Shown: piece after piece, positions 6,737-22,830 of the stretch | Layout: every line of letters begins with the position of its first letter | Numbering within the stretch: position 1 is the stretch's first letter | NCBI GenBank assembly: GCA_946610035.1 | Contig: CAMOCC010000002.1 | Span: forward strand, 4,254 to 68,253 | Length of the DNA: 64,000 nt | Direction: 5' to 3' | Origin: an uncultured Verrucomicrobiota bacterium | GTDB lineage: Bacteria > Verrucomicrobiota > Kiritimatiellia > RFP12 > UBA1067 | Position numbers and translations under genes: made by a program | Notes under the pieces: generated by a model | Seen by the model: only the letters and a program-made list of their open reading frames with translations | Database searches by the model: none | Told to the model about the DNA's origin: nothing

Positions 6737-6745
6737 TGCTATAAT
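6737..6745 (+). promoter_or_regulatory. extended -10 element TGCTATAAT upstream of the hybrid kinase gene
   Basis: Read directly. It sits 37 nt upstream of ATG 6782 and 58 nt upstream of the alternative GTG 6803. Confidence 0.4.
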
Positions 6746-6781: not shown

Positions 6782-9526
6782 ATGATAAACTTAGGAGGGG
6801 GAGTGCAAAGTTTCGTAGTGTTCGCATTGGCAGTAGTTGCCTTGGCGGCGACCGCAGGAGCGGCCGCCCTGATTTGTTTGGTTGTCAACTACCGCCGGAT
6901 GGCCGACGTGCGCCTGCGTTCGGGCGCCGTCGCGCCGACTGTGGGGGCGGGGCCGCGGGTCCCGGTCGACGAGTCGTGGCCGGACCTGCATCCCGACGAT
7001 TCCAAGGCGGTCGCCATGGCGAGGCGCAAGGCCCTCATTACGCGCTTCGTCGATATTTCGCCGTCGCCGTGCTACGTGAAGGACGCCTCCGACGGCTTCA
7101 GGTACATCGTATGCAACGATGCGTTCGCCAAGCTGACGGGGCTTGACAAGGACAGGATCGTCGGCTCGACAGACGAGGAGCTGTTCGGTCCGAAGTTCGC
7201 CATGGAGTCGCGCGCGAAGGACGAGGAGGCCCTTGAGTCCGACGCGCCGCTCTTCTACGAGGGCGCCATGCCGACAACGAGGGGCGGCGTCGGCTACAAG
7301 GTGAACCGTCGCAAGCAGAGGATCGTGACATGGGACGGCGTGAAGCTCATCTTCTGCCTCATGAGGGACGAGATGTACGACAGCCGCAGGGCCGATTCGG
7401 AGGCGTTCAAGGCGAAGCTCCTCGCGTACGCCATCGACCATCTCAACCACGAGGAGAACATCGAGTACATAGCGAGGCTGCTCGTCGAATACTTCGGCTG
7501 CGACAGGGTCGCGATTCGGTTCTCGGACGGTCCGCGCCACATCTGCTGGGCTGACGGGCGCAGGGAGGACGACGCCACCGACGGACGCAAGGCGGCGTGG
7601 GAGGCGTTCGGGACGGGCGACATCGTGAACGTCGAGGATGCGTCCAGGCTGAACCCCGAGTCGTGGCCGGAAGGCGCGGGGGCGATGGCGTTCCTCGGTG
7701 CGCGCGTGATGAAGGGGGGCGAAATGGTCGTCCAGGTCGCGGCCATTTTCGACAAGGAGCCCCACCACTTCTTCGAGGTGTCCGAGAGTGTCGTCATGTT
7801 CGCCGCCGAAACGCTCGCCCTGTCGCTCGAGCGCGCGCGGCTGCAGCGTCCGTACCAGATCGCCAACGCGAACTTCGAGACGATGTCCCGCGCGCTCCAC
7901 GAGCTCCAGGCGTCCGAGACGCTCGACGACCTAACGCCGTTCGTCAAGATCGTCTGCGAGCGTTTCAATGCGGACTACTGCTCCCTTGTGAAGGTGCTCG
8001 ACGACGGGCATAGCGCGGTCGTCTGCCAGTACGACCCGGACAGGGTGAGCGTCCTGCCCGACCTTCGGCGCGGCATTGCGGACGCGGCGGTGGGCGAGCT
8101 TGCGGACCGCTTCGGCGAGCACGACGCAATCGAGCTCGGCGACGAGGAGTCGCGCAGGTTGTGGCTCGACCACGGCTTCAACGAGGCGCAGATCGCGTCG
8201 GCTGCGATCCGCCACACCCAGCTCGCGGCCGTGCGCGTCAACGGCAAGTTCTGGGGCGCGATACAGATAGGCCACCACAGCCGCCGCCTCCTGAGCGACG
8301 ACGAATGGGGCCATCTCCACCGTCTTGCGGAGGTCCTTTCCATCGCCATCCGCCGGCGCGACGCCCACGACGAGCTCAAGGCGGCGCTCGACCGCGCAAG
8401 GGCGGCGGACAAGGCGAAGTTCTTCTTCTCGACGGTGAGCCACGACATCAGGACGCCGCTCAACGCCGTCATAGGGCTTTCGCAGATGCTGAAGCTGGGC
8501 TTCGCCACGGAGCAGGAGCGCGACAATGCGATAGACTCCATAATCTTGAGCGGCAAGACGCTCCTGCAGCTCGTGAACGACGTGCTGGACCTCTCGAAAC
8601 TCGAGGCGGGCAAGGTGGTCGTCAGCCCGGAGCCTACGGACTGCGCTAAGCTCATTTCGGAGATAGTGGGTTCCTTCAAGGTCGCGAACCCCGGCGCGGC
8701 GGTCGACATACGCAGCAGGATGTCGCCTATGCCGCTCCTGGAGATCGACCCGCAGCGCATCCGCCAGATCATCTTCAACCTCGCGGGGAACGCCGTAAAG
8801 TTCACCGTGAAGGGCTTTGTGGAGGTGAGGGCGTCCTTCGAGCCCGATTCGCCAGGCGCGGGAGCCGGGACGCTCACCGTCGCCGTGGAGGACACGGGCT
8901 GCGGCATATCGAACGAGGAGAGGAAGTTCATCGACACGCCGTACGTCCAGTTCGGGAAGGGCGTCAAGAAGGGCGGCACGGGGCTCGGCCTCGCAATCTG
9001 CCGCCAGCTCGCATCCGCCATGCACGGCCGGATAGAGTTCGAGAGCGAGGTGGGCAGGGGGACCGTCTTCTACCTGAAGATACCGGGTGTCAAGGCGTGT
9101 GCGGGCACCGTCCGGCCCGGGAGGAAGGACGCACAGCTCATGAGCCTGAGCGCCGTGGATGCTGCGCATTCGCGCTACACGAAGGTCCTCATAGCCGACG
9201 ACTCCAAGGTGAACCTGATGGTCCTTTCGTCGATGCTCAAGCGCCTGGGCGTAAGGGAGGTCGTCAAGGCGGAGAACGGCAAGGAGGCGCTGGAGAGGCT
9301 TCGCGAGGGCGGCTTCGACCTCGTGCTCACCGACATGTGGATGCCTGAGCTGGACGGCGAGGGGCTCGTCCGCGCCATGCGCGCCGACAGGCGGTTCGAC
9401 GGACTGCCGGTGTACGCAATCACGGCTGACGTGGAGATTCGGAACCACGTTGCACTGGACGGCTTCAACGGCATACTGTTGAAGCCAGTGACCTTCGACG
9501 TGCTCAAGCCGGTGCTGAATGCGTGA
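6782..9526 (+). CDS. hybrid sensor histidine kinase (TM, PAS, GAF-like, HisKA, HATPase_c, REC)
   Basis: H-box FFFSTVSHDIRTPLNAVIG, G-boxes EDTGCGIS and GGTGLGLAICRQL, receiver KVLIADDSKVN..DLVLTDMWMPELDG. GTG 6803 is a likely alternative start, 4 nt after an AGGAGG. Confidence 0.88.
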   Translation: MINLGGGVQSFVVFALAVVALAATAGAAALICLVVNYRRMADVRLRSGAVAPTVGAGPRVPVDESWPDLHPDDSKAVAMARRKALITRFVDISPSPCYVKDASDGFRYIVCNDAFAKLTGLDKDRIVGSTDEELFGPKFAMESRAKDEEALESDAPLFYEGAMPTTRGGVGYKVNRRKQRIVTWDGVKLIFCLMRDEMYDSRRADSEAFKAKLLAYAIDHLNHEENIEYIARLLVEYFGCDRVAIRFSDGPRHICWADGRREDDATDGRKAAWEAFGTGDIVNVEDASRLNPESWPEGAGAMAFLGARVMKGGEMVVQVAAIFDKEPHHFFEVSESVVMFAAETLALSLERARLQRPYQIANANFETMSRALHELQASETLDDLTPFVKIVCERFNADYCSLVKVLDDGHSAVVCQYDPDRVSVLPDLRRGIADAAVGELADRFGEHDAIELGDEESRRLWLDHGFNEAQIASAAIRHTQLAAVRVNGKFWGAIQIGHHSRRLLSDDEWGHLHRLAEVLSIAIRRRDAHDELKAALDRARAADKAKFFFSTVSHDIRTPLNAVIGLSQMLKLGFATEQERDNAIDSIILSGKTLLQLVNDVLDLSKLEAGKVVVSPEPTDCAKLISEIVGSFKVANPGAAVDIRSRMSPMPLLEIDPQRIRQIIFNLAGNAVKFTVKGFVEVRASFEPDSPGAGAGTLTVAVEDTGCGISNEERKFIDTPYVQFGKGVKKGGTGLGLAICRQLASAMHGRIEFESEVGRGTVFYLKIPGVKACAGTVRPGRKDAQLMSLSAVDAAHSRYTKVLIADDSKVNLMVLSSMLKRLGVREVVKAENGKEALERLREGGFDLVLTDMWMPELDGEGLVRAMRADRRFDGLPVYAITADVEIRNHVALDGFNGILLKPVTFDVLKPVLNA

Positions 9527-10716
9527 CTAAGGGAGAAGACGGGACAGTGAAGGGGATTTCGATATATCTGTTCATCGACGCGCTCGGATGGGACGTGGTG
9601 GAGCCTACCGGGTTCCTCTCGGACGTCCTGCCGAACAGGCGCGCGGTGGACATGCAGTTCGGATACTCCTCGTCTGCGATCCCGACGATCCTCTCCGGCA
9701 GGCAGCCCGACGAGCACGGGCACCTCGGCCTCTTCGCATGGGCCCCCGAGAGGAGTCCGTTCCGCCGCGTCGCCCGCATCATGCGCCTCATGCGTCCGCG
9801 CGCCGTCTTCAACCGCCCGCGAGTCCGCGGGTGGATCTCGAAGGCCGTCAAGCGCGCCCTCGGGATAACGGGCTACTTCCAGCTCTACCAGATGACGCCG
9901 GAGAAGCTCCCCTACGTCGACTACTGCGAGAAGAGGGACCTCTTCGTCCCCGGCGGCATGGAGGGCGTCGCGAACATCGCGGACGAACTCGTGCGCGCGG
10001 GCGTCCCCCACCACATCAGCGACTGGCGGCGCCCGGACGAGGAGAACCTCGCTATAGGCGCGAAGGAGATCGGGATGGGGACTGACTTCGTCTTCATCTA
10101 CACCGCCGAACTGGACGCCCTGCGGCACAAGTTCGCCGCGCCTTCCGTCAACCCCGAGGTGAAGGCGAAGCTCGCATGGTACCGACAGCGCATCCTCCGC
10201 CTCGTCGCGGCCGCGAAGTCCACCGGACGCCCCTGGACGCTCACCGTCTTCTCCGACCACGGGATGACGCCGCTCACCAAGACCGTGGACCTGAAGGGCG
10301 CGGTGGAGGCGACGGGGCTCGTCCTCGGGCGCGACTACGGCGCGTGCTACGACTCGACGCTTTTCAGGGTTACGTACCTCAAGCCAGGCGCGAGGGAGCG
10401 CATCGAGGCGGCTCTCGCGCCATTCGCCGGGGACGGACGCTGGCTCACGGAGGGCGACGAGCGGGAGAACGGGGTGTGGCGCAGGGACAGGGCGTTCGGC
10501 GACGCCATCTTCCTTGTGAAGCCGGGCGTGCAGATCGTCCCCAGCGACATGGGGCTCGCCCCGCTCGCGGGGATGCACGGGTTCGATCCGCGCGACGTCC
10601 ACTCGAAGGCGGCCGTGATGTCCACGGCGCCGATCCCGGACTGGGTGCGCGGGGTGAAGGACTATTTCAGATTGATGAAGGCGGGCTTCGAAGTCGGAGG
10701 CCCCGGGAACAACTAA
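9523..10716 (+). CDS. alkaline-phosphatase-superfamily protein (type I phosphodiesterase / nucleotide pyrophosphatase-like), no signal peptide seen
   Basis: IDALGWD, GYSSSAIPTILSGRQPDEHG and VFSDHGMTP motifs. GTGA overlap with the kinase stop codon. Confidence 0.65.
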   Translation: MTKGEDGTVKGISIYLFIDALGWDVVEPTGFLSDVLPNRRAVDMQFGYSSSAIPTILSGRQPDEHGHLGLFAWAPERSPFRRVARIMRLMRPRAVFNRPRVRGWISKAVKRALGITGYFQLYQMTPEKLPYVDYCEKRDLFVPGGMEGVANIADELVRAGVPHHISDWRRPDEENLAIGAKEIGMGTDFVFIYTAELDALRHKFAAPSVNPEVKAKLAWYRQRILRLVAAAKSTGRPWTLTVFSDHGMTPLTKTVDLKGAVEATGLVLGRDYGACYDSTLFRVTYLKPGARERIEAALAPFAGDGRWLTEGDERENGVWRRDRAFGDAIFLVKPGVQIVPSDMGLAPLAGMHGFDPRDVHSKAAVMSTAPIPDWVRGVKDYFRLMKAGFEVGGPGNN

Positions 10717-10734
10717 CAAGCAATAAGGAGGCTT

Positions 10735-11070
10735 ATGGAGATAAAGATAGAGAGCAAGGAAGGGCTCATAATAGTGGCCGTCGACGGGCGTCTCGTGGCG
10801 TCGTGCTCCGAGGAGCTCAAGGAGAGGGTGTCGGCGGAGATGGAGAAGACGCCGAACGTCGTCTTCGACTTCACGAACATGACGCACGTGGACTCGTCGG
10901 GGCTGGGTGCGCTCGTGTACATACTGCAGCGCGCCAAGGCGGCCGGCGGAACCGTCCGCCTCGCATGCCTCCAGCCGCACCCGCGCATCGTGTTCGACAT
11001 AACAAAGGTGTTCCGCGTCTTCGAGATATACGACACCGTCGAGGCTGCGGAGAAGGCGTTCAACAAGTAG
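10735..11070 (+). CDS. STAS-domain protein (anti-sigma-factor antagonist, SpoIIAA/HsbA-like)
   Basis: 111 aa. Contains the phosphorylatable-serine motif THVDSSGLGALV. SD aaggagg upstream. Confidence 0.85.
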   Translation: MEIKIESKEGLIIVAVDGRLVASCSEELKERVSAEMEKTPNVVFDFTNMTHVDSSGLGALVYILQRAKAAGGTVRLACLQPHPRIVFDITKVFRVFEIYDTVEAAEKAFNK

Positions 11071-11074
11071 ACTG

Positions 11075-14000
11075 GTGAAAATTGCGCACATAGTCAGACG
11101 CTACGCCAGGAACGAATGGGGCGGAACGGAGACGGTCGTCTCCCACATAGCGACGGAGCAGCTCCGCCGCGGGGACGACGTGCGCATTTTCTTCACATCG
11201 GCCTGCCAGCCGCCCGGCTCGACGGAGGGGTATGCGTACTACTACCCGTACTGGCCCATGCCGGAGTCCGACCGCATAGCGCTGGACAAGAAGGGGGGCA
11301 GCCCCATCTCGCCGGCGCTCATGAGGGCCGTGGAGGACTTCAAGCCCGACCTCATCCACATACACGCGGGCGGGCGGCTCGCCTGCGCGGCGGCGGGGCT
11401 TGCGGAGGAGCTGTGCGTCCCGTCCGTCATGTCGCTGCACGGCGGCGCGATGGCGGTACCGGAGTCGGAAATGGAGGAGATGCTCCGTCCGATGAAGCGC
11501 AAGATACCCTACGGCGGCATCATCGACCGGCTAATGGGGCTCAATTTCGATCCTCTCGAGCAGGTCGACGCGATAATCTGCATCTCCTACGCCGAGAAGC
11601 GGAAGCTCGCCGAGAAGTATGGCGCGGGCCGGGTGCACTACCTGCCCAACGGCGTGGAACCGCCCGCCGAGGTGATCGGGCGCGGCAACGCCCGGAGCCG
11701 CGCGTCCCTTGCGGACCCCAGGGCCGTGAAGAACATCCTCTGCGTCTCGCGGATAGACTACCAGAAGAACCAGCTTGCGCTGGTGGAGCTCCTTGCCGGA
11801 CTTCCGAGCGCAAGGCTCACGCTTGTCGGACCCGTGACGGCGAAGTGGTACGGCGACAAGATACTCGCCCGCGTCCGCGAACTCGCCCTGGAGGACAGGT
11901 TCACGATGATCCCCGGCCTCCCGCCGGGAAGCGCGGAGCTGGAGGCGGAGTACGCCAAGGCGGACGTCTTCGTCCTGCCGAGCATACACGAGCCTTTCGG
12001 CATCGTCGCGCTGGAGGCGATGCAGCGAGGCATACCCCTCGTCGCGTCCGCCGTCGGCGGACTCGTCGACTTCGTGCACGACGGCAAGAACGGGCTCCTC
12101 TTCGACCCCGCCGCGCCGGACAGCCTCAAGTACGCCTTCTCGCGCTTCGTCATGGACGAGGCGCTGGCCGCGCGGATAGCGGAGGGGGGGCGCAGGACGG
12201 CGTCCGGTTTCATGTGGCCGGCGATCGTCGACAGGCTGGAGGGGATATACAGGGAGACGGTGCTCGGAGTCAAGACCGAAGGCTTTGTGAAGCGCGTCAC
12301 TGGCGGACGGGACGTGTCCATCCTCGTGAGGTCCCGCAACGAGGCGCGATACCTTGAGAGGACGCTTGCGGGCATCGAGGCCCAGCACTCCACGCGCATA
12401 CTGGAGGTGATAGTCTGCGACGACGCGTCGACGGACGATTCGCTGTACGTCGTCGAGGCGGCGAAGACGCGGGCGGCGAGGTCCGGCAGGTACATGATAC
12501 GCACCATTCCGCCTCCCGACGGCGAGTACCGTCCGGGGCGGATGCTCAACGCTATGGTGAAGGCGGCGTCCGGGCGTGTGATAGTCTTCAACAATGCGGA
12601 CGCCGTGCCGCTCGACTGCGACTGGCTCGAGAACCTGATTGCGCCGCTCGACTGCGGGCGGGCGGACGTCGTGTTCGCGAACCAGCTGCCTCGCCCCGAC
12701 GCCGACGTGCTGGTGAAGAAGGACTCCGTCAGGGCATTCGGGAACGGGCTCGTCTCCGCCGACTGGCCGCACTTCTTCTCGCTTGCGTCGTCGGCCGCGA
12801 TGAAGTACGACCTTCAGAAGTACCCCTTCGACGAAACGCTCATATACTCCGAGGACGTCGAATGGGCGAACAGGCGCAAGGGCTTCAGGCGCGTCTACTC
12901 GCCGCTTTCGCGCGTCGAGCACTCCCACGACTACACGAACGACCAGCTGGTCCGCCGCTTCTACGGAGAGGGGTATGCGGACGCGCAGATATTCGGCGAC
13001 CGGCCGGCGCCCTTTGCGAAGACGTTCCTTCGCGTGCTGGCGGAGTCCCTGCGCGACGCCAGGTATGTAATGGACGGTTCGGCGTCCGTCGGCTTCTGGA
13101 AGGGCCTGTGTACGATGCTTTCGTCCCCGAGGCGGCGCTGGCTGCAGAGGATGAGCCACGAGCGCGGAGTCGCCGATTTCCGCGAGGGGCGTCCGCCGCG
13201 CTACGTCTCCACCTCCGTCCGCCAGCGGCAGGCCGCCTGCGGCAAGACGCCGACCGTCCTGTTCACGGGGGTGTATCCGAAGTACCACGGCGGACTGGAG
13301 CGGTTCGCCGCGAGAATGGCGGACCTCCTGCGCTCGCGCGGGTACAAGGTCGACGTGATGGGCGATCCGCCGGAGGACGCGTCCGGCTACTCATACGTGC
13401 TCATGCACAAGGTCCCGCCGTCGCCCGCGGCGCTCAGGCGGCTGAAGTCGCAGTGCGGCGGACGGCTTCACTTCTTCGCGCACGACCACGAGCTCTACTG
13501 CCTGAGGCGGCACGGGTACACGCCGTTCAGGTGCAACTGCACGAGGGCGTATTCGCCGGCAAGATGCAGGCTCTGCGCGATGGTGACGCGTCCGCGATGG
13601 ATCTGGCGGGCGCTGACGCGTCCGATGCGCGCGTTCTTCGCCGAGATGAAGGGCGTGAGGATTTTCGCGCCGTCGGCCTTCACGCGGGACGCGCTTCTCA
13701 GAAACGGCTTCAATGCCGACGACATATCCATCGTCGCTCCCTTCTTCCATGAGGGGGAGATAGGGTCGAGTAGGGTCGATTTAGGGTCGACGCTAAAAGA
13801 CCCTAAACTGACGCTAAAAGACCCTAAAAAGACCCTAAAAGACCCTAACTCGACCCTAAAAGGCCCTAAACCGCTAAACCTCCTCTTCATGGGCCAGCTC
13901 ATCGCCGGGAAGGGGGTTGACATCCTCCTCGACGCCGTGAACCTACTCGACATCCCCTTCAGGCTGACCGTGGTCGGCTCCGGGCGCGACGAGGCGAAGC

Positions 14001-14422
14001 TGCGCGCCAAGGCGGCTTCCTTCGCGTCCGAAAAGCGCGATTCGATAGTCTTCACCGGTTGGTGCGAGAATCCGGAGGCGTACTTTGCCGAGGCGGACGC
14101 CGTGGTCTTCCCGTCAAGGTGGAACGAGCCGTACGGCCTCACCGGCGTGGAGGGCTACTGCCGCGGTGTGCCGTGCGTCGGCTTCGCGACGGGCGGAGTG
14201 CCCGGGTGGCTGATCGACGGCGAGACGGGCGTTCTCGTCGGGGAGAAGACGCCCGAGGCGCTGGCGGCCGGGATCGTCCGCATTGCGGACCCCGCATACA
14301 GGTTGCGCCTTGCGAAGGGCGCCCTGCGGTTCGCACATGAGAACTTCGCCCCCGACGTCATTCTGCGGCGAATGGGCTTTCAGTCGTGTTCCGCATGCGA
14401 AGGGAAGGGGGCGCCGTCATGA
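11075..14422 (+). CDS. three-module glycosyltransferase (GT4-like, GT2-like, GT4-like), 1115 aa
   Basis: N-terminal MKIAHIVRRY..GGTE and ..EPFGIVALEAMQRGIPLVAS (GT4). Middle VSILVRSRNEARYLERTLAGIEAQ..VCDDASTDDS (GT2). C-terminal ..EPYGLTGVEGYCRGVPCVGF (GT4). Confidence 0.8.
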   Translation: MKIAHIVRRYARNEWGGTETVVSHIATEQLRRGDDVRIFFTSACQPPGSTEGYAYYYPYWPMPESDRIALDKKGGSPISPALMRAVEDFKPDLIHIHAGGRLACAAAGLAEELCVPSVMSLHGGAMAVPESEMEEMLRPMKRKIPYGGIIDRLMGLNFDPLEQVDAIICISYAEKRKLAEKYGAGRVHYLPNGVEPPAEVIGRGNARSRASLADPRAVKNILCVSRIDYQKNQLALVELLAGLPSARLTLVGPVTAKWYGDKILARVRELALEDRFTMIPGLPPGSAELEAEYAKADVFVLPSIHEPFGIVALEAMQRGIPLVASAVGGLVDFVHDGKNGLLFDPAAPDSLKYAFSRFVMDEALAARIAEGGRRTASGFMWPAIVDRLEGIYRETVLGVKTEGFVKRVTGGRDVSILVRSRNEARYLERTLAGIEAQHSTRILEVIVCDDASTDDSLYVVEAAKTRAARSGRYMIRTIPPPDGEYRPGRMLNAMVKAASGRVIVFNNADAVPLDCDWLENLIAPLDCGRADVVFANQLPRPDADVLVKKDSVRAFGNGLVSADWPHFFSLASSAAMKYDLQKYPFDETLIYSEDVEWANRRKGFRRVYSPLSRVEHSHDYTNDQLVRRFYGEGYADAQIFGDRPAPFAKTFLRVLAESLRDARYVMDGSASVGFWKGLCTMLSSPRRRWLQRMSHERGVADFREGRPPRYVSTSVRQRQAACGKTPTVLFTGVYPKYHGGLERFAARMADLLRSRGYKVDVMGDPPEDASGYSYVLMHKVPPSPAALRRLKSQCGGRLHFFAHDHELYCLRRHGYTPFRCNCTRAYSPARCRLCAMVTRPRWIWRALTRPMRAFFAEMKGVRIFAPSAFTRDALLRNGFNADDISIVAPFFHEGEIGSSRVDLGSTLKDPKLTLKDPKKTLKDPNSTLKGPKPLNLLFMGQLIAGKGVDILLDAVNLLDIPFRLTVVGSGRDEAKLRAKAASFASEKRDSIVFTGWCENPEAYFAEADAVVFPSRWNEPYGLTGVEGYCRGVPCVGFATGGVPGWLIDGETGVLVGEKTPEALAAGIVRIADPAYRLRLAKGALRFAHENFAPDVILRRMGFQSCSACEGKGAPS
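13761..13868. repeat. in-frame inverted/direct repeat cluster (3x TAGGGTC, then 5x GACCCTA plus 1x GGCCCTA) inside the glycosyltransferase gene
   Basis: tagggtcgag (13761-70) is the exact reverse complement of ctcgacccta (13849-58). The 19-nt unit gacgctaaaagaccctaaa occurs at 13789-13807 and 13810-13828. The region encodes TLKDPK-type peptide repeats. Confidence 0.9.
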
Positions 14423-16266
14423 AACTGCTGGTCGACGTCATACCCTTCGACAACGGGAAGTCCGGGATATCGGTGTACTGCCGCGAGGTGGTTGCCGCCC
14501 TGGTGGCGGACGGACACGAGGTGACTCTGCTGGCGGAGCCTGGCGTGGCCGGGGAGTTCTTCCCCGGGCTTGCCCACATCGACGCGCCCAGGTGGACGAA
14601 GAGGCCTGCGTTGTCCATGCTCTGGCACCTTCTTCGCGCGCCTGCGCTCGTCAAGCGGTCGGGGTGCGCTGCGTGCCTGCTTCTCGCTGCGAACAGGCGG
14701 GCGTTCCGCAGGTATCCCGTCCCCACCGTCGCTGTCGTCCACGATCTCGCACAGTACCATGTCGATGCGAAGTACGACAAGTTCAGGATGTTCTACATAA
14801 AGCGGCTGCTTCCGCACTTTGTCCGCAAGGCCCACACCGTCGTCGCGATATCGAAGAGCACGGCGAAGGACCTCGTGGAGCACTGGCGCATACCGGAGTC
14901 GATCGTGAGGGTCGTCTACAACGGATTCACGAAGTCCGGCGGTGTCCCCGGCGTCGGGACGGGCGGGACGGAGGGCGGATCGATCCTCTACATCTCGCGT
15001 ATCGAGCATCCGGGGAAGAACCACGAGACGCTGATAGAGGCGTACGGTAGGCTGCCGCGCGAATTCGCCGAGCGGCATCCGCTCGTCCTCGTCGGCGGCG
15101 ATTGGAACGGTGCGGAGAAAATTCACGAACTCGCCGGGAGCAGTCCGTATCGCGACTTCATCCGCTTCACGGGGTTCGTGCCCGCCGGGGACCTCCGGCG
15201 GCTGTACGCGGAGGCGTCGTGCTACGTCTTCCCGAGCAGGTTCGAGGGATTCGGGCTTTCCCTTCTCGAGGCGATGGACGCGGGAGTGCCGTGTGCGTGC
15301 TCGAAGACCGGATCGCTTGGCGAGATCGGAGAAGGCGCGGCGGAGCTGTTCGATCCCGAGGATCCGGACGACATTGCGCGGGCCGTGAAGGCGGCGGCGG
15401 AAGGTCCCGGAAGGGATTCCTTGATTGCGGCGGGCAGGGCCAGGGCGGAGTGCTTCGACTGGCGGAAGTGCGCGCGCGGACTGCTCGGATCGTTCCCCAA
15501 GGCGGAGGTCTTCGGCGTGCCGGTGGACTGCGTGACGATGGAGGAGGCGGTCGGCGAAGTCGCCGGCTGCGTCCGCACCGGCGCGAAGCCGAAGTTCTTT
15601 GCGTTCGTCAACGCCCACTGCCTCAACACGGCCTACCGGGACGCGGAGTACGCCGAGATACTGAAGAGTTGCGATGCGGTGTGGCCGGATGGAAGCGGCG
15701 TGCGCATCGCCGGGCGCATCCTGGGCTTCCCCGTGCCGGCGAACGTGAATGGGACGGACCTTTTCCCGATGCTGTGCCGCGCGGTCGAAGGGGACGGACC
15801 CGGGTCGCGTTCCGTCTTCATGTTCGGCGGCGAGCCGGGCGTGGCCGAGAAGGCGGCGGAGAATGCCGTCCGGATGTTCCCCGCTCTGAGGATCGCCGGA
15901 GTGTGCGACGGGTTCCGCCCGCCAGGGGAGGCGGAGTCGGCCATCGCCGCCGCGCATCCCGACATACTGCTCGTGGCGCTCGGTGTTCCGCTTCAGGAGA
16001 AGTGGATAGCGGCGCGGCTGGGGAGTCTCGACTGCGGATGCGTCCTTGCGGTGGGCGGGCTTCTCGATTTCGTGTCCGGCCGCCATGCGAGGGCACCGAT
16101 GTGGATGCGCAGGCACGGGATCGAGTGGATGCACCGTTTCATGCTGGAGCCGCGGCGGATGTTCCGCCGGTACATAATAGGCAATCCGCTTTTCATGGCG
16201 CGGGTCGCGCGCGAGCGGCGTGCGAGGCGCGGGGATTTCAAGAGAGGAAGGTGTATGCGGCAATGA
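14419..16266 (+). CDS. fusion glycosyltransferase: GT4-like N-terminal module plus WecG/TagA/CpsF (GT26)-like C-terminal module
   Basis: I place the start at ATG 14419 (ATGA overlap). GT4 motif: RFEGFGLSLLEAMDAGVPC. GT26 motifs: FVNAHCLN, WPDGSGV, ILLVALGVPLQEKW, GGLLDFVSG. Confidence 0.78.
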   Translation: MKLLVDVIPFDNGKSGISVYCREVVAALVADGHEVTLLAEPGVAGEFFPGLAHIDAPRWTKRPALSMLWHLLRAPALVKRSGCAACLLLAANRRAFRRYPVPTVAVVHDLAQYHVDAKYDKFRMFYIKRLLPHFVRKAHTVVAISKSTAKDLVEHWRIPESIVRVVYNGFTKSGGVPGVGTGGTEGGSILYISRIEHPGKNHETLIEAYGRLPREFAERHPLVLVGGDWNGAEKIHELAGSSPYRDFIRFTGFVPAGDLRRLYAEASCYVFPSRFEGFGLSLLEAMDAGVPCACSKTGSLGEIGEGAAELFDPEDPDDIARAVKAAAEGPGRDSLIAAGRARAECFDWRKCARGLLGSFPKAEVFGVPVDCVTMEEAVGEVAGCVRTGAKPKFFAFVNAHCLNTAYRDAEYAEILKSCDAVWPDGSGVRIAGRILGFPVPANVNGTDLFPMLCRAVEGDGPGSRSVFMFGGEPGVAEKAAENAVRMFPALRIAGVCDGFRPPGEAESAIAAAHPDILLVALGVPLQEKWIAARLGSLDCGCVLAVGGLLDFVSGRHARAPMWMRRHGIEWMHRFMLEPRRMFRRYIIGNPLFMARVARERRARRGDFKRGRCMRQ

Positions 16267-18233
16267 GCATAATAAGGCTGATAGTGGAGGACTTGAACCG
16301 CAGGAGGCGCCACGGCGGGATTCTCCTCGTCGTGACGGTGGCGGTGGTTTGGATTGTCGCGGTCGGGTTCATGCTGGACAGCTACAGGAGGCTTTGGAGG
16401 CTGACGGACGAAGTGGGGGCGAGCCACAGGTACTGGCAGGACCTCTCGGAGGTCGGAATCGAGTTCAGGGAAGGGTCCGACAGGCTCACGCTCGAGGTGA
16501 CGCGGTACGTCCTCTTCGAGGACATCAGGTACATGCGCGCCTACTTCCACGAAGCCGACGTGACGCGCAGCCGCGAGCACGCGCTGGAGGCGCTGAAGGA
16601 CGTGCCCGGGTCGGAGCCGCTCGCCGAGGCGCTCGACAGGGGAATGGACGAATCCGTCCGCCTGATGGAGACCGAGTTCCACGCAATGCGGCTGACGGCG
16701 GCGGCGAGCGGGGTGGACGAAGCGGCGCTCCCGGAGAAGCTCCGCAACTGGAAGCTGACCGACGAGGAGAGGGCGATGGACGCCGACGCAAAGCGCAAGC
16801 TCGCCGGGCGGCTCATCTTCGGCAAGGAGTACAACGACGTCAAGGAGCGGATCTGGCGGGCGGCGTCGGAGCCGTTGAAGGAGCTGCTCTCGAGGGTCCA
16901 TGTGAGGTACGACAAGTTCACGGGCGACATCGTCTTGTGCCGCCGCCTCAACATGACGTACACGATCATCTGCATAGTGATGCTGCTCCTGAGCTTCTAC
17001 GGCGCGATGAGGGTCGGGCTTCTGCGGTTCAAGTCGAAGGAGAGGCAGATGCTCGCCGCCGTGATGCGCGAGCGCGACGCGGCGGTTGCGGCCGAGAAGG
17101 CGAAGGACTACTTCTTCGCGTCGGTCTCGCACGACATCCGCTCGCCGCTCAACTCCATCATCGGCTTCTCCGAGCTGCTCAGGCGCGGGGACGCGACCGG
17201 GAGCGAGCGCGAGATGTACCTGGAGGGCATAGAGACGTCAGGCAAGCAGCTCCTGGAACTCATAAACGACGTCCTCGACCTGGGCAAGATCGGTGCGGGC
17301 AAGATCGTCCTCAAGCCGGAGCCGGTGGACGTCCTGCGCCTCGTCTCGGAGGTCGTGAACGTCTTCCTCCCGCAGGCCCAGCACGCGGGGTTGACGATAT
17401 CCTCCTTGCACACGTCCGAGCGGCACTTCCCGTACCTCGACAGGATGCGCTTCCGCCAGGTGCTGATGAACCTCGTGGGCAACGCGGTCAAGTATACGGA
17501 GAAGGGGGGCGTCGACGTGACGGTCGAATGCGACGAGAAGACTGGAAGCCTCGTCATCGCCGTGCACGACACCGGGCGCGGCATTTCGCCCGAGGACAAG
17601 GAGAAGCTCATGCAGCCCTACGTCCAGCTCTCGCACGCCGACGGACGCAAGGGCACGGGGCTCGGGCTCGCCATCTGCCGCCAACTCGTCGAACTTATGG
17701 GCGGGCGCATAACCATCGAAAGCGAGCTGGGCGTGGGGAGCGTGTTCACCGTCCGGCTGGAACGCGTGCGCTTCGCGGACGGCGAGGACCTCGCGAGGCT
17801 TCGCGCCGAGGCGGCGTCGTACTCGGAGAGGACGGAGCGCCAGATCGACGCCCACGACCCGGCCATCGCGAAGCTGCGCCTCCTGGTGGCGGACGACATG
17901 CCGCTCAACATAACGGTGCTGAGGCAGATGCTCAAGCGCTACGGGATAACGAAGGTCGTCGCGGCGTCCAACGGACGCGCGGCGCTGAACGAGCTGAGGG
18001 GCGACGGCGCGGCGTTCGACCTCGTGTTGACGGACATGTGGATGCCCGAGATGGGCGGCGAGGAGTTCATCCGCATAGTGCGCGCAGACCCTGAGCTGAA
18101 GGACATCCCCGTCTACGCCGTCACGGCGGACGTCGAGATCCTCAAGAACTACCAGGATCTGGGATTCACCGGGACGCTGCTGAAGCCGGTGACGTTCGAG
18201 GCCCTGGCAAAGATACTTTCGTCGGTAATATAG
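16263..18233 (+). CDS. hybrid sensor histidine kinase (2 TM sensor, HisKA, HATPase_c, REC)
   Basis: I place the start at ATG 16263 (ATGA overlap); the upstream part of track ORF 15102 is an overlapping frame. H-box FFASVSHDIRSPLNSIIG, HDTGRGIS, GTGLGLAICRQL, receiver LLVADDMPLN..DLVLTDMWMPEMGG. Confidence 0.85.
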   Translation: MSIIRLIVEDLNRRRRHGGILLVVTVAVVWIVAVGFMLDSYRRLWRLTDEVGASHRYWQDLSEVGIEFREGSDRLTLEVTRYVLFEDIRYMRAYFHEADVTRSREHALEALKDVPGSEPLAEALDRGMDESVRLMETEFHAMRLTAAASGVDEAALPEKLRNWKLTDEERAMDADAKRKLAGRLIFGKEYNDVKERIWRAASEPLKELLSRVHVRYDKFTGDIVLCRRLNMTYTIICIVMLLLSFYGAMRVGLLRFKSKERQMLAAVMRERDAAVAAEKAKDYFFASVSHDIRSPLNSIIGFSELLRRGDATGSEREMYLEGIETSGKQLLELINDVLDLGKIGAGKIVLKPEPVDVLRLVSEVVNVFLPQAQHAGLTISSLHTSERHFPYLDRMRFRQVLMNLVGNAVKYTEKGGVDVTVECDEKTGSLVIAVHDTGRGISPEDKEKLMQPYVQLSHADGRKGTGLGLAICRQLVELMGGRITIESELGVGSVFTVRLERVRFADGEDLARLRAEAASYSERTERQIDAHDPAIAKLRLLVADDMPLNITVLRQMLKRYGITKVVAASNGRAALNELRGDGAAFDLVLTDMWMPEMGGEEFIRIVRADPELKDIPVYAVTADVEILKNYQDLGFTGTLLKPVTFEALAKILSSVI

Positions 18234-18245
18234 CCTTTAGGACGG

Positions 18246-18274
18246 TTCACACCGCGCCCTTGTTATGGTATAAT
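18246..18274 (+). promoter_or_regulatory. promoter TTCACA-N17-TATAAT with TGG extension
   Basis: TTCACA at 18246-51 and TGGTATAAT at 18266-74, in the only sizeable intergenic gap (18234-18333) of the supercluster. Confidence 0.5.
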
Positions 18275-18333
18275 ATCCGTGATGCGCGGTTTTGCACCGA
18301 TACCGAAGCGGCTGAAGCGGAGAGGAGATGTAG

Positions 18334-20013
18334 ATGGCCGAAGACGACAACGGGAAGATGCAGGTTCTCATGCTGGACGACGAGCGGCTCGTCCGGTTCA
18401 CCATTGGCACGTATCTGAAGGCATCCGGCTTCAACGTGCACGAGGCGTCGACGCCCGACGAGGCGATCGGCATACTCCGTCGCACCCAGATCCACGTAGT
18501 CGTGTCCGACGTCAGCATGGGCGACGTGGACGGCTTCATGTTCAGGGACATGGTCCGTTCCTTCAACGCCGACATCCCCATCGTCTTCCTGACGGCGATG
18601 GTGAACGACGAGAACAACGCCTTCATGTCGAAGCTGACCGACGACATACGCTCCTACTACGTCTCCAAGTCGGCCCCGCGCCATGTGCTGGTCACGAGAA
18701 TCCAGCAGGTCTCGGAGTTCTACCGCGCGAGGATCGGGCTCGAGCGCTCGCGCGACGCCCTGCAGAAGAGCCTCAGGCTTGCGAGCTGCGTCCAGAAGTC
18801 GATGCTCCCGTACTGGGCGAGCGTAAGCCGCCAATACGCCTACTCATGCCGCATCCGCGCATTCGAGTCAGTCTCCGGCGACCTCATGGAGTGGTACCGC
18901 CCGACGGAGACGACGGCCCTCGTCATCTTCGGCGACGTCTCCGGCCACGGGACGAACGCGGCGCTCGCGATGACGGCGATCCAGGCGTTCCTCAAGCAGT
19001 TCAAGCACATCGAAGTCTCCATCGCGAGGCGCGTCCACCACATCGCCTCGCTCATACACGAGTTCATATCCGCGAACTTGAGGGATGTCGCGTACATGGC
19101 CGCCACGATCGTATACGTCGACTTCGAGGCGTGCCGTTGCCGCTACCTCAACTGCGGCAACCCCGAGCCCTACATCTCGCACCTTGGGGACGGGGCGCGG
19201 CGGATCGTCAACAAGGAGGCGAGGGGCGGACTGCCGCTCGGGCTCATGCCGGACGCCGAGTACCACGATTCCGACGTCGTGGAGTTCGACTTCCATCCGG
19301 GCGACGCCTACGTCCAGATGTCCGACGGCATATACGACGTATCCAGCGACCCCGGCGGCGAGAGCCGCATCCCCGACGACATCGTCGACGAACTCGTCGC
19401 CATCACTATACGCGACCAGCCGTCGAAGGGCGAGTTCCTGTGCGAGCTGCCATACCGTCTCTTCGGCGCGATCTACGACATGGGCTTCACGCACCAGCAG
19501 GACGACATGTCGGTCTGCGTCTTCTCGCCGTTTGCGAAGACGGACGGGCGGACGTACTTGCACCGCGTGAGGATGCAGCCCGGGAAGATCGACACCGTGA
19601 GCCACTCCGCCGGCGTATGGGTGGCGGACAGGTTCAAGTCCGACGAACTGGGGGTGAAGGCGGAGCTTCTCCTGAACGAGCACCTCATGAACATCTACCG
19701 CCACGGCTACGACGCCTTCGAGAAGCAGCGCGAGGTGTGCATAATCGCGATCCGCGAGGACCTTGGGACGATGCAGGTCAGCGTCTGGGACAGGGGCGCG
19801 CCGTGGTCGCAGATCGCGTCCTCGTCGTACTCCGCCGCCGAGGCGAAGCTCGACGAGCAGAACGAGGCGCTTGCCGCGAACGGACGCGGGCAGGCGATAA
19901 TGAAGAAGCTCACGCAGAGCATCAGCCGCGTGAGGACCGCGGGGTTGAACAGGACGGTGTTCACGTTCGCCCTGCCCGAGGAGTATTTGAAATCCAGTGG
20001 CGACAAATCGTAA
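18334..20013 (+). CDS. response regulator with PP2C-type (SpoIIE/RsbU) phosphatase and C-terminal RsbW/SpoIIAB-like kinase (HATPase_c_2) domains; HsbR-like
   Basis: REC: VLMLDDERLV..VVVSDVSMGDVDG. PP2C: SGDLMEWY..FGDVSGHGTNAAL..MSDGIYD. Kinase-like: NEHLMNIYRHG, VWDRGAPW, NGRGQAIM. Confidence 0.82.
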   Translation: MAEDDNGKMQVLMLDDERLVRFTIGTYLKASGFNVHEASTPDEAIGILRRTQIHVVVSDVSMGDVDGFMFRDMVRSFNADIPIVFLTAMVNDENNAFMSKLTDDIRSYYVSKSAPRHVLVTRIQQVSEFYRARIGLERSRDALQKSLRLASCVQKSMLPYWASVSRQYAYSCRIRAFESVSGDLMEWYRPTETTALVIFGDVSGHGTNAALAMTAIQAFLKQFKHIEVSIARRVHHIASLIHEFISANLRDVAYMAATIVYVDFEACRCRYLNCGNPEPYISHLGDGARRIVNKEARGGLPLGLMPDAEYHDSDVVEFDFHPGDAYVQMSDGIYDVSSDPGGESRIPDDIVDELVAITIRDQPSKGEFLCELPYRLFGAIYDMGFTHQQDDMSVCVFSPFAKTDGRTYLHRVRMQPGKIDTVSHSAGVWVADRFKSDELGVKAELLLNEHLMNIYRHGYDAFEKQREVCIIAIREDLGTMQVSVWDRGAPWSQIASSSYSAAEAKLDEQNEALAANGRGQAIMKKLTQSISRVRTAGLNRTVFTFALPEEYLKSSGDKS

Positions 20014-20028
20014 ATCAAGGGGGGATAA

Positions 20029-20343
20029 ATGAAGGAATGCATAAAGGAATGGCTGCTGAAGCAGATGCCGGAAATGGACGACGACACGCTCGGCGCGATA
20101 TACGAGGAGTACCGCGACAGCGCCGTGAGGCTGTGGGGCGACCTGAAGGCGAATGTTTCGTCCGGGGGCGATCCGGTCGCGGCGGATCGTCTGGCGCACA
20201 CCCTGAAGGGCAGCGCGGCGACCGTGGGCGACAACGCCGTCTTCGAGGTCGTCCAGGGCTGGCGCGAGGCCGTGAAGGCCGGCGACACCGCCCGAGCGGG
20301 CGAGCTGTGGGTGAAGATCGAACCGCTCATCGAGGCGATTTGA
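20029..20343 (+). CDS. histidine phosphotransfer (Hpt) protein
   Basis: 104 aa with the motif AHTLKGSAATVG. Confidence 0.8.
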   Translation: MKECIKEWLLKQMPEMDDDTLGAIYEEYRDSAVRLWGDLKANVSSGGDPVAADRLAHTLKGSAATVGDNAVFEVVQGWREAVKAGDTARAGELWVKIEPLIEAI

Positions 20344-20380: not shown

Positions 20381-21121
20381 TTGAACAAGAGAGCCAGAGA
20401 GGGGTCGGCCGCGGTGGCCGGTGCGGATCTGACGGACCTCGTCCGCCAGCTTGAGCGCCGTACGCGTCTCAGCCGAAGCAGCAGATTCCGCCTGGCGATG
20501 TGGAACGCCACGGTCCGCGGCGCGTATTTCGTGAAGCGGGCGTTCGACGTGTTCGTGTCCGGCGGCCTCATGCTCCTCCTCTCCCCGGTCTTCCTGGCGA
20601 CGTACCTCGCCATAAGGCTGACCTCTCCAGGCCCTGCGTTCTTCTCGCAGACGCGCGTCGGGCGCTACGGGCGCCACTTCAAGTTCTGGAAGTTCAGGTC
20701 CATGAGGATCGACGCGGAGTCGATGAAGAAGTCGCTCATGTCCGAGAACGAGTCCGGCGACGGAGTCATATTCAAGATGAAGAAGGATCCGAGGATAACG
20801 CCGGTCGGGCGCTTCATCCGCAAGTTCTCCATCGACGAGCTGCCGCAGCTGTGGAACGTCCTCAAGGGCGACATGACGCTCGTCGGGCCTCGTCCGCCCG
20901 TCCCGTCCGAGGTCGCCGAGTACACGCTCGAGGACCGCAAGCGGCTCAACGTCATACCGGGGCTGACGTGCACCTGGCAGGTTTCGGGCAGGAGCGAGAT
21001 ACCGTTCCGCGAGCAGGTCAGGCTCGACAAGGAGTACATCCGGACGCACGGATTCTGGAACGACCTCAAGATCCTGGCCAAGACGGTTCCGGCGATCCTC
21101 ACAGGAAGGGGGGCCTACTGA
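20381..21121 (+). CDS. small phosphoglycosyl transferase (bacterial sugar transferase, PglC/WbaP C-terminal type)
   Basis: KRAFDVFVSG..., FKFWKFRSM, KMKKDPRITPVGRFIRKFSIDELPQLWNVLKGDMTLVGPRP. Start uncertain: TTG 20381, GTG 20414 or ATG 20498. Confidence 0.85.
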   Translation: MNKRAREGSAAVAGADLTDLVRQLERRTRLSRSSRFRLAMWNATVRGAYFVKRAFDVFVSGGLMLLLSPVFLATYLAIRLTSPGPAFFSQTRVGRYGRHFKFWKFRSMRIDAESMKKSLMSENESGDGVIFKMKKDPRITPVGRFIRKFSIDELPQLWNVLKGDMTLVGPRPPVPSEVAEYTLEDRKRLNVIPGLTCTWQVSGRSEIPFREQVRLDKEYIRTHGFWNDLKILAKTVPAILTGRGAY

Positions 21122-22830
21122 TGAAGGCCATAATCGTACCTTACGCATACATGTCCAAGTGCCTGTGGGCGCGCAAGGTCTTCCCGGACCGCTCGATCGC
21201 CTCGCTGCCGATCGCCGACAAGTGCCTCATCTACTACCAGCTCGACGAATGCGCGAAGCACGGCATAAAGGACGTGCTTATACTGGACTGGGGATTCGAC
21301 GCTGTATTGGCGGACAAGCTGGGCGACGGTTCGAGGTGGGGCCTGAACCTGACGTACACTGGCGTGTCGTCCGGTGGCACGCTCAAGTCCCAGGTGATGC
21401 GCCACTCCGAGTTCATGGACGGCGATAAGATCGAGTTCTACTTCGACAACGAGGTCGGCGGGCGCTGCATCGACTCGCTGGAGGCGTACTACAGGGCCAA
21501 CATGGAAGTCCTCGCGAACCCGGGCGGCCTGACGCTTCCCGGCTACTCCTCCGAAGAGGGCGTCCACGCCGGGATGAACGTCGTAATGAAGCCTGGCGTC
21601 GAAGTCGAGCACCCCGTCCTCCTCGGCGACAACTGCCGGCTCGAGCGCGGCGTCTGCGTGTCCTCGTCGACCATCGGCTGCGGGGCCGTCGTCGACGAGG
21701 GAACACGCATCTACAGGTCCGTAGTGTTCCCGAACACCTACATCGGGCGCGACCTCGACCTGGACGGCAAGATCGTCGTCGGCAACCGCGTCATAAACCC
21801 GAGGACGGAGGCCTACATCGACTCCGACGACCAGGGCGTCGCCAGCAGCCTCGACGCGCACTTCATGGCGGTGCCGAAGCCGGTGCCCTACGAGGAGCTC
21901 GCGCCCCTGCACTACACGGCGAACGGCGATGCGGCCGTGGACCACCAGGTCGCCCTCGCGCTCTCGGAGCTCGCGCTGGACATCGCCTCGCTGAGGCTGG
22001 ACAAGGTGGTCGCGGTCGTCCTCGGCGGCGGGTACGGACGCGGCGAGGGCGGCGCGCCGTTGAACAACGACCTCGACTTCTTCGTCCTTACGGACCGTGC
22101 GAACGAGGACGAGAAGGGCAAGATAAAGATCCTTCTCGAGACGGCCGCCATAAGGTACCACGACGAACTCGGCGTTGACGTCGACTTCTGCCGTCCGAAG
22201 AACGTCCAGGAGTTCAAGAAGGACGAGCGCCGGTTGATGATGCAGGAGCTGATAAGGGGCCACGTCGTCATCTACGGCGACGAATCGAGCCTTTCGTTCA
22301 TGAGGCCGCGCCCGCCGACCGACCTCCCCCCGACCGAGGCGCTCCGCCTGCTTGTGAACCGCGGCATGGGCCTCGCCCTCGCGCGCTATTCGCGCGACAG
22401 GGGATTCGTCAAGCGCAACATCAACAAGGCGATACTCGGCGTCGGCGACGCGATCCTCATCGCGGAGGGCAGGTATGCGTGGGACTGCCGGACGAGGATG
22501 CGGCTCCTGGGGCGCGAGGACTACACGAAGGCCGTCGAGTTCAAGTTCGACCCCAGGAAGGACTTCGTCCCGTCGTGGGAGGCCGGCTACGCCGTGTGGC
22601 GCGAGGGCGTGGACAGGGTGTGCGAGCTGTGCGGACCGGCCCTGACACGGCGCGGAGTGCGCCACGCGCTGCGCTGGCTCGCCAGGCGCAGGACGCTCGG
22701 GGATCTTTCGACGTTCGGATGCGATCCGCTCTGGAGGATATTCGTCCCGCTGGAGCGCCTGCTTGCGATCGGACGCGCCGGCCCGAGAATACCCGATTCG
22801 CTCGTGCACGATTGGATGACTTTCAATTAA
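21121..22830 (+). CDS. two-part protein: sugar-nucleotidyltransferase-like fold plus hexapeptide beta-helix (N-terminal), Pol-beta-type nucleotidyltransferase-like domain (C-terminal)
   Basis: I place the start at ATG 21121, sharing one base with the upstream TGA. LbH repeats around GMNVVMKPGVEVEHPVLLGDNCRLERGV. C-terminal LGGGYGRGEGGAPLNNDLDFFVLTD matches the G-x-G...D-x-D NTase pattern. Confidence 0.5.
   Translation: MKAIIVPYAYMSKCLWARKVFPDRSIASLPIADKCLIYYQLDECAKHGIKDVLILDWGFDAVLADKLGDGSRWGLNLTYTGVSSGGTLKSQVMRHSEFMDGDKIEFYFDNEVGGRCIDSLEAYYRANMEVLANPGGLTLPGYSSEEGVHAGMNVVMKPGVEVEHPVLLGDNCRLERGVCVSSSTIGCGAVVDEGTRIYRSVVFPNTYIGRDLDLDGKIVVGNRVINPRTEAYIDSDDQGVASSLDAHFMAVPKPVPYEELAPLHYTANGDAAVDHQVALALSELALDIASLRLDKVVAVVLGGGYGRGEGGAPLNNDLDFFVLTDRANEDEKGKIKILLETAAIRYHDELGVDVDFCRPKNVQEFKKDERRLMMQELIRGHVVIYGDESSLSFMRPRPPTDLPPTEALRLLVNRGMGLALARYSRDRGFVKRNINKAILGVGDAILIAEGRYAWDCRTRMRLLGREDYTKAVEFKFDPRKDFVPSWEAGYAVWREGVDRVCELCGPALTRRGVRHALRWLARRRTLGDLSTFGCDPLWRIFVPLERLLAIGRAGPRIPDSLVHDWMTFN

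Follow-up and report, generated by a model that had tools for sequence, protein, structure and literature searches.

The 18-gene syp polysaccharide locus of Vibrio fischeri is the setting of a pathway in which the hybrid kinases RscS and SypF act through SypE on the STAS protein SypA (PMC4517449, PMC11112999). No anti-sigma role is evident for SypA, which exerts its control below transcription on an unknown target (PMC4517449, PMC11112999), and a 2024 review states that SYP production is regulated by SypA "at an unknown level" (PMC11112999). The mode of action of STAS-only proteins such as SypA on polysaccharide output is an open question. In Anabaena, the phosphorylation state of a STAS domain is proposed to control a polysaccharide glycosyltransferase (GT) directly, with activity in the unphosphorylated form and without the participation of a sigma factor (PMC13555669 and a preprint). 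The authors regard this strategy as lineage-specific to cyanobacteria (PMC13555669). Here we analyzed a 64-kb stretch of DNA from a gut-type, uncultured Verrucomicrobiota bacterium of the Kiritimatiellia (contig CAMOCC010000002.1; the whole stretch is called the window hereafter), in which a free-standing STAS protein and a phosphorelay are encoded within an exopolysaccharide (EPS) locus. We consider it somewhat probable that the relay operates a STAS switch whose effector belongs to the EPS machinery, most likely at the initiation of synthesis. A preliminary description of this DNA had called the arrangement unusual, which was an overstatement given the precedents of SypA/SypE (PMC4517449) and of the 2026 Anabaena study (PMC13555669).

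An EPS locus with a built-in signaling chain

Genes were picked by third-position GC (GC3) in this window of about 65% G+C and then checked with Pfam (Table 1). The signaling genes and the EPS genes downstream of them are closely packed. Thus, the Hpt gene is followed by those for a phosphoglycosyl transferase (PGT) of the Bac_transf family, a left-handed beta-helix (LbH) protein, the co-polymerase p657, Wza, a Wzy_C protein and a GH9 enzyme, with overlaps or at most 37 nt between them. Therefore, positions 6782 to 29371 (22.6 kb), signaling genes included, represent a single Wzy-dependent EPS locus that carries a built-in signaling chain. The longest unassigned gap between 6782 and 31130 is at most 166 nt. 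The Wzx/Wzy-type parts found in the locus are the priming PGT, the Wzy polymerase, the polysaccharide co-polymerase (PCP/Wzc) and the Wza exporter. No Polysacc_synt match, as expected of a Wzx flippase, was obtained among the scanned genes of the window; in Lentisphaeria relatives, a flippase of this family is placed between the gene for the Phosphodiest protein (PDE) and the STAS gene. No transcription factor gene was seen among the Pfam-scanned genes of the locus, and an Rfam search of the whole window returned four tRNAs only, with no riboswitch or leader in the EPS locus.

Direct reading of the sequence bore out the junctions on which the preliminary description had insisted, namely the GTGA overlap between the genes for the first hybrid histidine kinase (HK1) and PDE at 9523, the 4-nt gap between the STAS and GT genes, and the ATGA overlaps between two GT genes at 14419 and between a GT gene and that of the second kinase (HK2) at 16263. 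Further overlaps join p657 to wza, wzy to the GH9 gene, and the PGT gene to that of the LbH protein, the last by 1 nt (TGATG).

Profile searches with Pfam recovered each of the domains claimed earlier, including PP2C, HATPase_c_2 and STAS. Both hybrid kinases terminate in a Response_reg domain, and neither has an Hpt match. HK1 has a membrane anchor at its N terminus, His554 in its HisKA domain (codon 8441-8443) and Asp851 in its receiver (codon 9332-9334). The gene for HK2 is in the frame of the open reading frame (ORF) 15102..18233, and the protein carries His290 (codon 17130-17132) in HisKA and Asp591 (codon 18033-18035) in the receiver. Its sensor consists of a loop of about 190 residues between two transmembrane helices, which we presume to be extracytoplasmic. 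The two kinases are paralogues. Their receivers, whose closeness had been noticed, have 53% identity (E = 7e-42), and transmitter and receiver together are 46% identical over 375 residues (E = 5e-109).

The HsbR-like protein combines a receiver (Asp59, codon 18508-18510), a PP2C/SpoIIE phosphatase and a HATPase_c_2 serine kinase. Despite a median identity of 32%, its catalytic motifs are all kept in 42 orthologues (D59, DxxGHG, DG, DD, N-box E/N/H, DxG and GxG). The stand-alone Hpt protein has His57 (codon 20197-20199) within an HTLKGS motif. As for the STAS protein, the serine of its DSSGLG motif, singled out in the preliminary description, is Ser54 (codon 10894-10896), the predicted phospho-acceptor, which aligns with the phosphorylated Ser58 of SpoIIAA. 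Ser54 is invariant in 31 of 31 homologues, among which the C-terminal half of the protein is nearly invariant, and the closest sequence matches in the PDB are TM1442 and SpoIIAA.

Table 1. Genes and promoter-like sites of the EPS locus
Feature	Position	Strand	Size	Basis and details
Promoter-like site P1	6716..6745	+		TAGCCA-18-TATAAT, TG extension, TGCTATAAT at 6737-6745; 37 nt upstream of HK1
HK1, hybrid histidine kinase	6782..9526	+	914 aa	Pfam PAS-GAF-GAF-HisKA-HATPase_c-Response_reg
PDE, cytoplasmic alkaline-phosphatase-superfamily protein (Phosphodiest)	9523..10716	+		PF01663, 4.6e-13
STAS protein, single-domain	10735..11070	+	111 aa	PF01740, 1.4e-22
Fused GT4-GT2-GT4 glycosyltransferase	11075..14422	+	1115 aa	Pfam; GTG start
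GT4 + WecG/TagA (GT26) fusion	14419..16266	+	615 aa	Pfam
HK2, hybrid histidine kinase	16263..18233	+	656 aa	Pfam HisKA-HATPase_c-Response_reg
Promoter-like site P2	18246..18274	+		TTCACA-17-TATAAT, 11/12 matches, TG extension; 60 nt upstream of HsbR-like gene
HsbR-like response regulator	18334..20013	+	559 aa	Pfam Response_reg-SpoIIE-HATPase_c_2
Stand-alone Hpt	20029..20343	+	104 aa	PF01627, 1.4e-07, above curated cut-off
PGT, small priming phosphoglycosyl transferase	20381..21121	+		Pfam Bac_transf, PF02397
LbH protein, two-part	21121..22830	+	569 aa	RmlA-like fold + left-handed beta-helix, then nucleotidyltransferase-fold half
p657, Wzc-like polysaccharide co-polymerase	22847..24820	+	657 aa	No Pfam match; fold search
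Wza-like outer-membrane polysaccharide export protein	24817..25893	+		Poly_export + SLBB
Wzy-type polymerase / O-antigen-ligase-like membrane protein	25896..27281	+		Wzy_C
GH9 glycoside hydrolase with CelD_N, final locus gene	27278..29371	+		Pfam

The STAS protein and its candidate targets

A genome scan yielded 80 STAS loci in metagenome-assembled genomes (MAGs) of Kiritimatiellia, Lentisphaeria and Victivallales from gut and rumen, and the window proteins were compared with these loci by tblastn. In 72 of the 80 loci, at least one homologue of the EPS genes of the window is found no more than 10 kb from STAS. The arrangement recurs in some 70 related species. Where at least 8 kb flanks STAS on each side, a GT or PGT homologue is present in 33 of 38. 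An HsbR-like or Hpt gene is near STAS in 43/80 loci, 40 of which have both. Homologues of WecG were found in 45 of the 80 loci, of PGT in 39, of PDE in 15 and of p657 (within 10 kb) in 15, the PDE homologue being immediately upstream of STAS in 6 to 8 loci.

The gene sets are shared across loci, with their order permuted. Some 35 rumen Kiritimatiellae have the order HsbR-Hpt-PGT-LbH-STAS-hybrid HK-GT4/WecG-p657-Wza-Wzy. The Lentisphaeria order is GH9-PDE-flippase-STAS-GT2-GT4-GT4(-WecG), and another order found is PGT-LbH-p657-Wza-(PDE)-STAS-(GT4)-Wzy-GH9; a GH9 gene thus occurs in related loci too. In the Lentisphaeria and Victivallales loci that were examined closely (L003-L008), STAS stands amid biosynthetic genes, and the portion inspected includes no HsbR-like gene. 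A few genomes have a signaling-only cluster, HsbR-Hpt-STAS-HK-HK.

The preliminary description had proposed that the STAS protein may directly control the GT or export machinery. The data support a module dedicated to a polysaccharide locus (72/80) and lend no specific support to the adjacent 1115-aa GT as the target. The conservation of the STAS and triple-GT neighborhood reduces to shared membership in an EPS locus, as a GT gene directly follows STAS in only 26 of the 80 loci (15 GT2-like, 6 GT4a-like and 5 GT4c-like) and a hybrid kinase gene does so instead in about 38. L012 resembles the window, with GT4a, GT2 and GT4b matches contiguous right after STAS, and the three domains of the triple GT are encoded as separate GT4, GT2 and GT4 genes in Lentisphaeria. 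Stop-start overlaps between STAS and GT genes recur in L006, L007 and L008, often of 4 nt. Because the downstream neighbor of STAS differs across loci, the triple GT was rejected as the best guess for its specific target. The conserved property is that STAS belongs to an EPS locus, and not its adjacency to a particular GT. No neighbor is as steady as the nucleotidyltransferase-like half of the LbH protein, whose coding sequence ends 20 to 90 nt upstream of STAS in 36 to 40 of the 80 loci.

The degree of conservation offers a clue to the target. Median identities to the window proteins are 66% for PGT, the best-conserved protein of the locus, 57% for Wza, 55% for STAS and 53% for PDE, and they fall to 32% for the PP2C and kinase part of the HsbR-like protein and to 34% for Hpt. 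The identity of STAS tracks that of PGT, Wza and PDE rather than that of the HsbR-like and Hpt proteins, and the constraint on STAS is therefore that of the core machinery rather than that of the enzyme that would modify it. There are about 300 homologues at 54 to 73% identity, all small and single-domain, and those with a taxonomic name are from Kiritimatiellae, Victivallales or Lentisphaeria. A profile search of 1.84 billion representatives retrieved only 13 STAS clusters at E<=1e-30, indicating that the subfamily is compact. Scanning ten locus proteins against NCBIfam gave no equivalog name; the STAS superfamily model was the only one above its cut-off, and a similarity to RssB was below threshold.

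The window STAS protein is separate from Bac_transf, whose gene is 9.3 kb downstream, and no fusion proteins were found among its 120 closest homologues. In contrast with these, two distant matches from metagenomes (P0264 and P0142) are WecG/TagA-STAS-STAS fusions, whose STAS domains share 32 to 36% identity with the window protein. One such fusion lies at L090:4850-6361, in the order GT4-epimerase-GT2-Bac_transf-[WecG-STAS-STAS]-[NTP_transferase/LbH]-Bac_transf. P0142 is apparently frameshifted mid-protein, and P0264, on a 1.8-kb contig, is the cleaner fusion. In cyanobacteria, STAS is fused to Bac_transf itself in All4160 and XssP, and genetics indicate that phosphorylation inactivates the enzyme (PMC13555669). 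Moreover, a non-phosphorylatable STAS variant bypasses the loss of the REC-SpoIIE phosphatase HenR in Anabaena (PMC13555669). As WecG and Bac_transf act at the first two lipid-carrier steps, these fusions make the early lipid-carrier steps a likely target.

We thus favor the following scheme. HK1, with its cytoplasmic PAS and GAF domains, and HK2, with its presumed extracytoplasmic loop, would sense different inputs, and both would pass phosphate to the stand-alone Hpt and from there to the receiver of the HsbR-like protein. By analogy with HsbR and SypE, the protein would change over from a serine kinase to a PP2C phosphatase once this receiver is phosphorylated, which would set the phosphorylation state of Ser54 in STAS. 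Unphosphorylated STAS would then bind a protein of the EPS machinery, rather than an anti-sigma factor, and gate polymer output at the protein level. Its likeliest targets would be those of lipid-carrier initiation, namely the Bac_transf PGT, the WecG-type second transferase and the nucleotidyltransferase-like protein. The steps that lead from domain to chemistry are likely, given what is known of the families, with the logic of regulation taken from HsbR (PMC5085249) and SypE (PMC4517449). We infer the direction of phosphate flow, the active phospho-form of STAS and the identity of its target.

With regard to these candidates, the TTG start assigned to PGT adds an Arg/Ser-rich N-terminal extension of about 50 residues, and an internal Met some 40 residues in may be the real start. 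The LbH protein departs from RmlA in that their alignment starts only at residue 28, and the GxGTRL nucleotide loop is missing from it and from 41 orthologues. Its C-terminal half (residues 264 to 569, 306 residues) has no Pfam match and was modeled with a pLDDT of 94. The predicted fold is of the Pol-beta/ANT type and resembles ANT-type adenylyltransferases, the HalB nucleotidyltransferase and MNT proteins; its invariant motifs are GGGYGRGEGG...NDxD...DxDF. In many rumen Kiritimatiellae, this half is encoded by a gene of its own, of about 315 codons. A PDB sequence search with the Phosphodiest protein found no relative.

The co-polymerase offers the main alternative target. A PDB sequence search with p657 gave nothing significant, but Foldseek matched its structural model to full-length Wzc of E. 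coli (E = 1.7e-18) and the C-terminal domain to the kinase domains of Wzc (3la6), BceF, CapAB, Etk and VpsO. However, the P-loop position carries no Walker A GK[ST] motif and the last 25 residues include no tyrosine in any of the 37 family members. By its sequence, p657 is therefore a conserved pseudo-kinase version of a Wzc-like co-polymerase. Without the Walker A lysine and the tyrosine cluster, and as no Wzb-like phosphatase was seen in scans of the window genes, the canonical tyrosine phospho-cycle cannot operate. These features suggest that the same relay might instead act on polymerization or export, with STAS binding the pseudo-kinase domain of p657 and a serine switch taking the place of the Wzc tyrosine cycle. 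The gene order in some loci agrees with this, since a full-length p657 homologue is the sole EPS-machinery gene in the signaling cluster HsbR-Hpt-p657-STAS of L009 and L010, and L017, L028 and L086 have the order p657-Wza-STAS-Wzy. Nevertheless, only 15 of the 80 loci have a p657 homologue within 10 kb and it is adjacent to STAS in one species, whereas the natural STAS fusions join WecG and Bac_transf (PMC13555669 for the latter) and no co-polymerase. We therefore hold p657 to be an unlikely target. A broader version, in which the serine switch of STAS may replace Wzc tyrosine autophosphorylation and STAS, possibly with the pseudo-RmlA/ANT-like protein, would toggle a complex for initiation and polymerization, appears possible but doubtful. 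If such a serine-for-tyrosine switch were true, candidate partners for SypA-type proteins would emerge from the roughly 80 loci together with the WecG-STAS and Bac_transf-STAS fusions.

Sigma-type outputs, promoter-like sites and other genes of the window

The classical alternative to an EPS-machinery target is a partner switch following the CrsR/CrsA and HsbR/HsbA-RpoS model, in which the HsbR-like protein would serve as anti-sigma factor through its HATPase_c_2 domain, with STAS as the antagonist, the sigma factor being encoded elsewhere and the EPS locus forming its regulon. Regulators frequently adjoin their target operons, which would fit this arrangement. The domain architecture of the HsbR-like protein is identical to that of the RpoS-binding HsbR and CrsR (PMC6482189), and its kinase N-, G1- and G2-box motifs are kept. 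As the preliminary description had noted, however, no sigma, anti-sigma, FlgM or GGDEF family is present in any GC3-supported gene of the window. Of the known partners, FlgM, the diguanylate cyclase HsbD and RpoS were found neither in the window nor in the related loci. Screening the 80 loci (about 1.3 Mb) for sigma factors, with limited sensitivity, yielded a single sigma-like ORF, 9 kb away, and no Sigma70 domain was found in the Pfam-annotated neighborhoods of related loci.

The promoter-like sites also argue against a sigma-type output. Only two intergenic gaps are large enough for promoters, and both contain TATGNTATAATA (at 6735 and 18264), which is absent elsewhere in the window (expected number, 0.00). 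The shorter motif TGNTATAAT occurs six times in the window for 0.08 expected (6737, 18266, 29523, 41957, 54755 on the minus strand, and 59733), in each case just upstream of a gene. From this excess and position, it resembles the housekeeping extended -10 element of the organism. Both transcription units of the locus thus start at housekeeping-like sites. Conservation extends to related loci, as in 20 of 40 the HsbR-like gene is preceded within 250 nt by a TGNTANAAT motif, for a background of 0.1 per kb.

Three observations make a distant sigma factor less likely as the output: the screens gave no linked sigma gene, the promoters look to be of a housekeeping type, and STAS remains among biosynthetic genes even in those Lentisphaeria and Victivallales loci that show no HsbR-like gene nearby. 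That STAS is much better conserved than the kinase that it would antagonize also speaks against it. Altogether, we find a sigma-type output quite unlikely.

At 29523 and 59733, TGNTATAAT ends 6 nt and 0 nt, respectively, before the annotated ATG. This spacing suggests leaderless mRNAs or mis-set start codons.

Several points nonetheless weigh against an effector in the EPS machinery. Pseudomonas and Shewanella proteins with the REC-PP2C-HATPase_c_2 architecture do bind the sigma factor RpoS (PMC6482189). The screen of the six-frame ORFs of the 80 loci for sigma factors and for GGDEF, of which the latter gave no match, was of limited sensitivity, and the promoter calls come solely from consensus matches. 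As the neighbors of STAS vary by lineage, synteny singles out no one target, and every partner named here is a candidate proposed from sequence. Finally, STAS is found in a signaling-only cluster in L001, L009 and L013.

The clusters without any EPS gene nearby (HsbR-Hpt-STAS-HK-HK in L001, L002 and L013) might mean that the signaling genes are passengers, linked to EPS genes in a physical sense only, whose own role lies elsewhere, for instance in motility or a stress response. We consider this very improbable, because the linkage between STAS and EPS genes is found in 72 of 80 loci, in two phyla and in several gene orders, and stop-start overlaps join signaling to glycan genes. In addition, the genome with the signaling-only cluster L013 has a second STAS paralogue within an EPS cluster, L072.

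Both of these paralogues are from one MAG, Tb.RUG.75, and no HsbR-like homologue was detected in the approximately 8.6 kb upstream of STAS in L072. The pair suggests that one kinase/phosphatase may serve two STAS proteins.

Elsewhere in the window, two very large secreted proteins are encoded in regions of 55 to 60% G+C, compared with 65%. One (31666-37644) has 1992 residues with PATR autotransporter-type repeats, and the other (60955-64000), which runs past the end of the window, has more than 1015 residues and no Pfam match. Outside the regulated locus, the segment 42211-48010 holds a second set of glycan genes, for two GT4 enzymes, a GDP-mannose 4,6-dehydratase and a GT2 enzyme, with a ribulose-phosphate 3-epimerase gene among them. 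Four tRNA genes (Arg-ACG, Met-CAT, Pro-GGG and Cys-GCA) are clustered at 52894-53311. They are followed at 53354-56279 by a divergent MocR/PdxR-like GntR-aminotransferase regulator gene adjoining pdxS/pdxT.

Comparison with described systems

The locus shares with the Bacillus RsbU/V/W and SpoIIE/AA/AB switches the STAS fold, the position of the phospho-serine and the chemistry of a PP2C phosphatase and a GHKL serine kinase. It differs from them in that no sigma gene was found in the operon or neighborhood, that its input is a His-Asp phosphorelay and that its output would be non-transcriptional.

The domain inventory of the Pseudomonas aeruginosa HptB-HsbR-HsbA pathway, to which the preliminary description had likened the locus, is matched by Hpt-less hybrid kinases, a stand-alone Hpt, a REC-PP2C-HATPase_c_2 protein and a STAS protein that bears the serine motif (PMC5085249). 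Moreover, Kiritimatiellia relatives carry these genes side by side, in the order HsbR-Hpt-STAS. The match, which extends to CrsR-CrsA of Shewanella, is one of component list and domain orders. Unlike in P. aeruginosa, the partners FlgM, HsbD and RpoS were not found in the window, the context is EPS rather than flagellar, and the kinases are encoded in the locus.

With the Wzc/Wzb control of E. coli capsules, the locus has in common Wza-, Wzc- and Wzy-like parts and, in p657, the full Wzc fold. p657 differs from Wzc by its missing Walker A lysine and C-terminal tyrosine cluster, and Wzb was not seen in the window.

The Anabaena HenR/Alr3423/All4160 system, like Synechocystis XssP, resembles the window in having a REC-SpoIIE phosphatase and a serine kinase that act on STAS, with the output in the window being the part that we infer. 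In Anabaena, STAS is fused to Bac_transf, and two distinct proteins, encoded at other sites, serve as kinase and phosphatase, whereas the window has a free STAS, kinase and phosphatase in one protein, and the hybrid kinases and Hpt in the locus. Our data argue that an unfused equivalent of this module is widespread in bacteria of the Planctomycetes-Verrucomicrobia-Chlamydiae (PVC) group. We found no description of such a module in Kiritimatiellia, Lentisphaerae or PVC bacteria in the literature, and a paper on Pontiella EPS is silent about it. Kiritimatiellia and Lentisphaerota are abundant in the gut and rumen, and it is in EPS clusters across these two groups that the unfused version, with its own sensors and Hpt, is hard-wired.

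In functional terms, the closest systems are this one and Syp of V. fischeri. In Syp, too, a polysaccharide locus encodes a STAS protein of a single domain, whose serine can be phosphorylated and which is run by a receiver-bearing serine kinase/PP2C protein with two hybrid kinases upstream. The likeness to Syp is drawn from architecture and gene context, between Gammaproteobacteria on the one hand and PVC bacteria on the other. The domain order of SypE is kinase-REC-PP2C, as opposed to REC-PP2C-kinase in the window. The Syp phosphorelay also feeds SypG, a DNA-binding protein that switches on syp transcription (PMC4517449), whereas the window has a stand-alone Hpt and no transcription factor seen in the locus. 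The concept is therefore not new; what is new is the free-standing STAS combined with an HsbR-type architecture, with sensors and Hpt encoded in cis, and with a pseudo-kinase Wzc and an odd nucleotidyltransferase-like protein. The comparative data shorten the list of candidate partners to four, namely the priming and WecG-type transferases, the nucleotidyltransferase-like protein and the Wzc-like pseudo-kinase. Together with the breadth of conservation, this short list could make the question of the SypA target testable.

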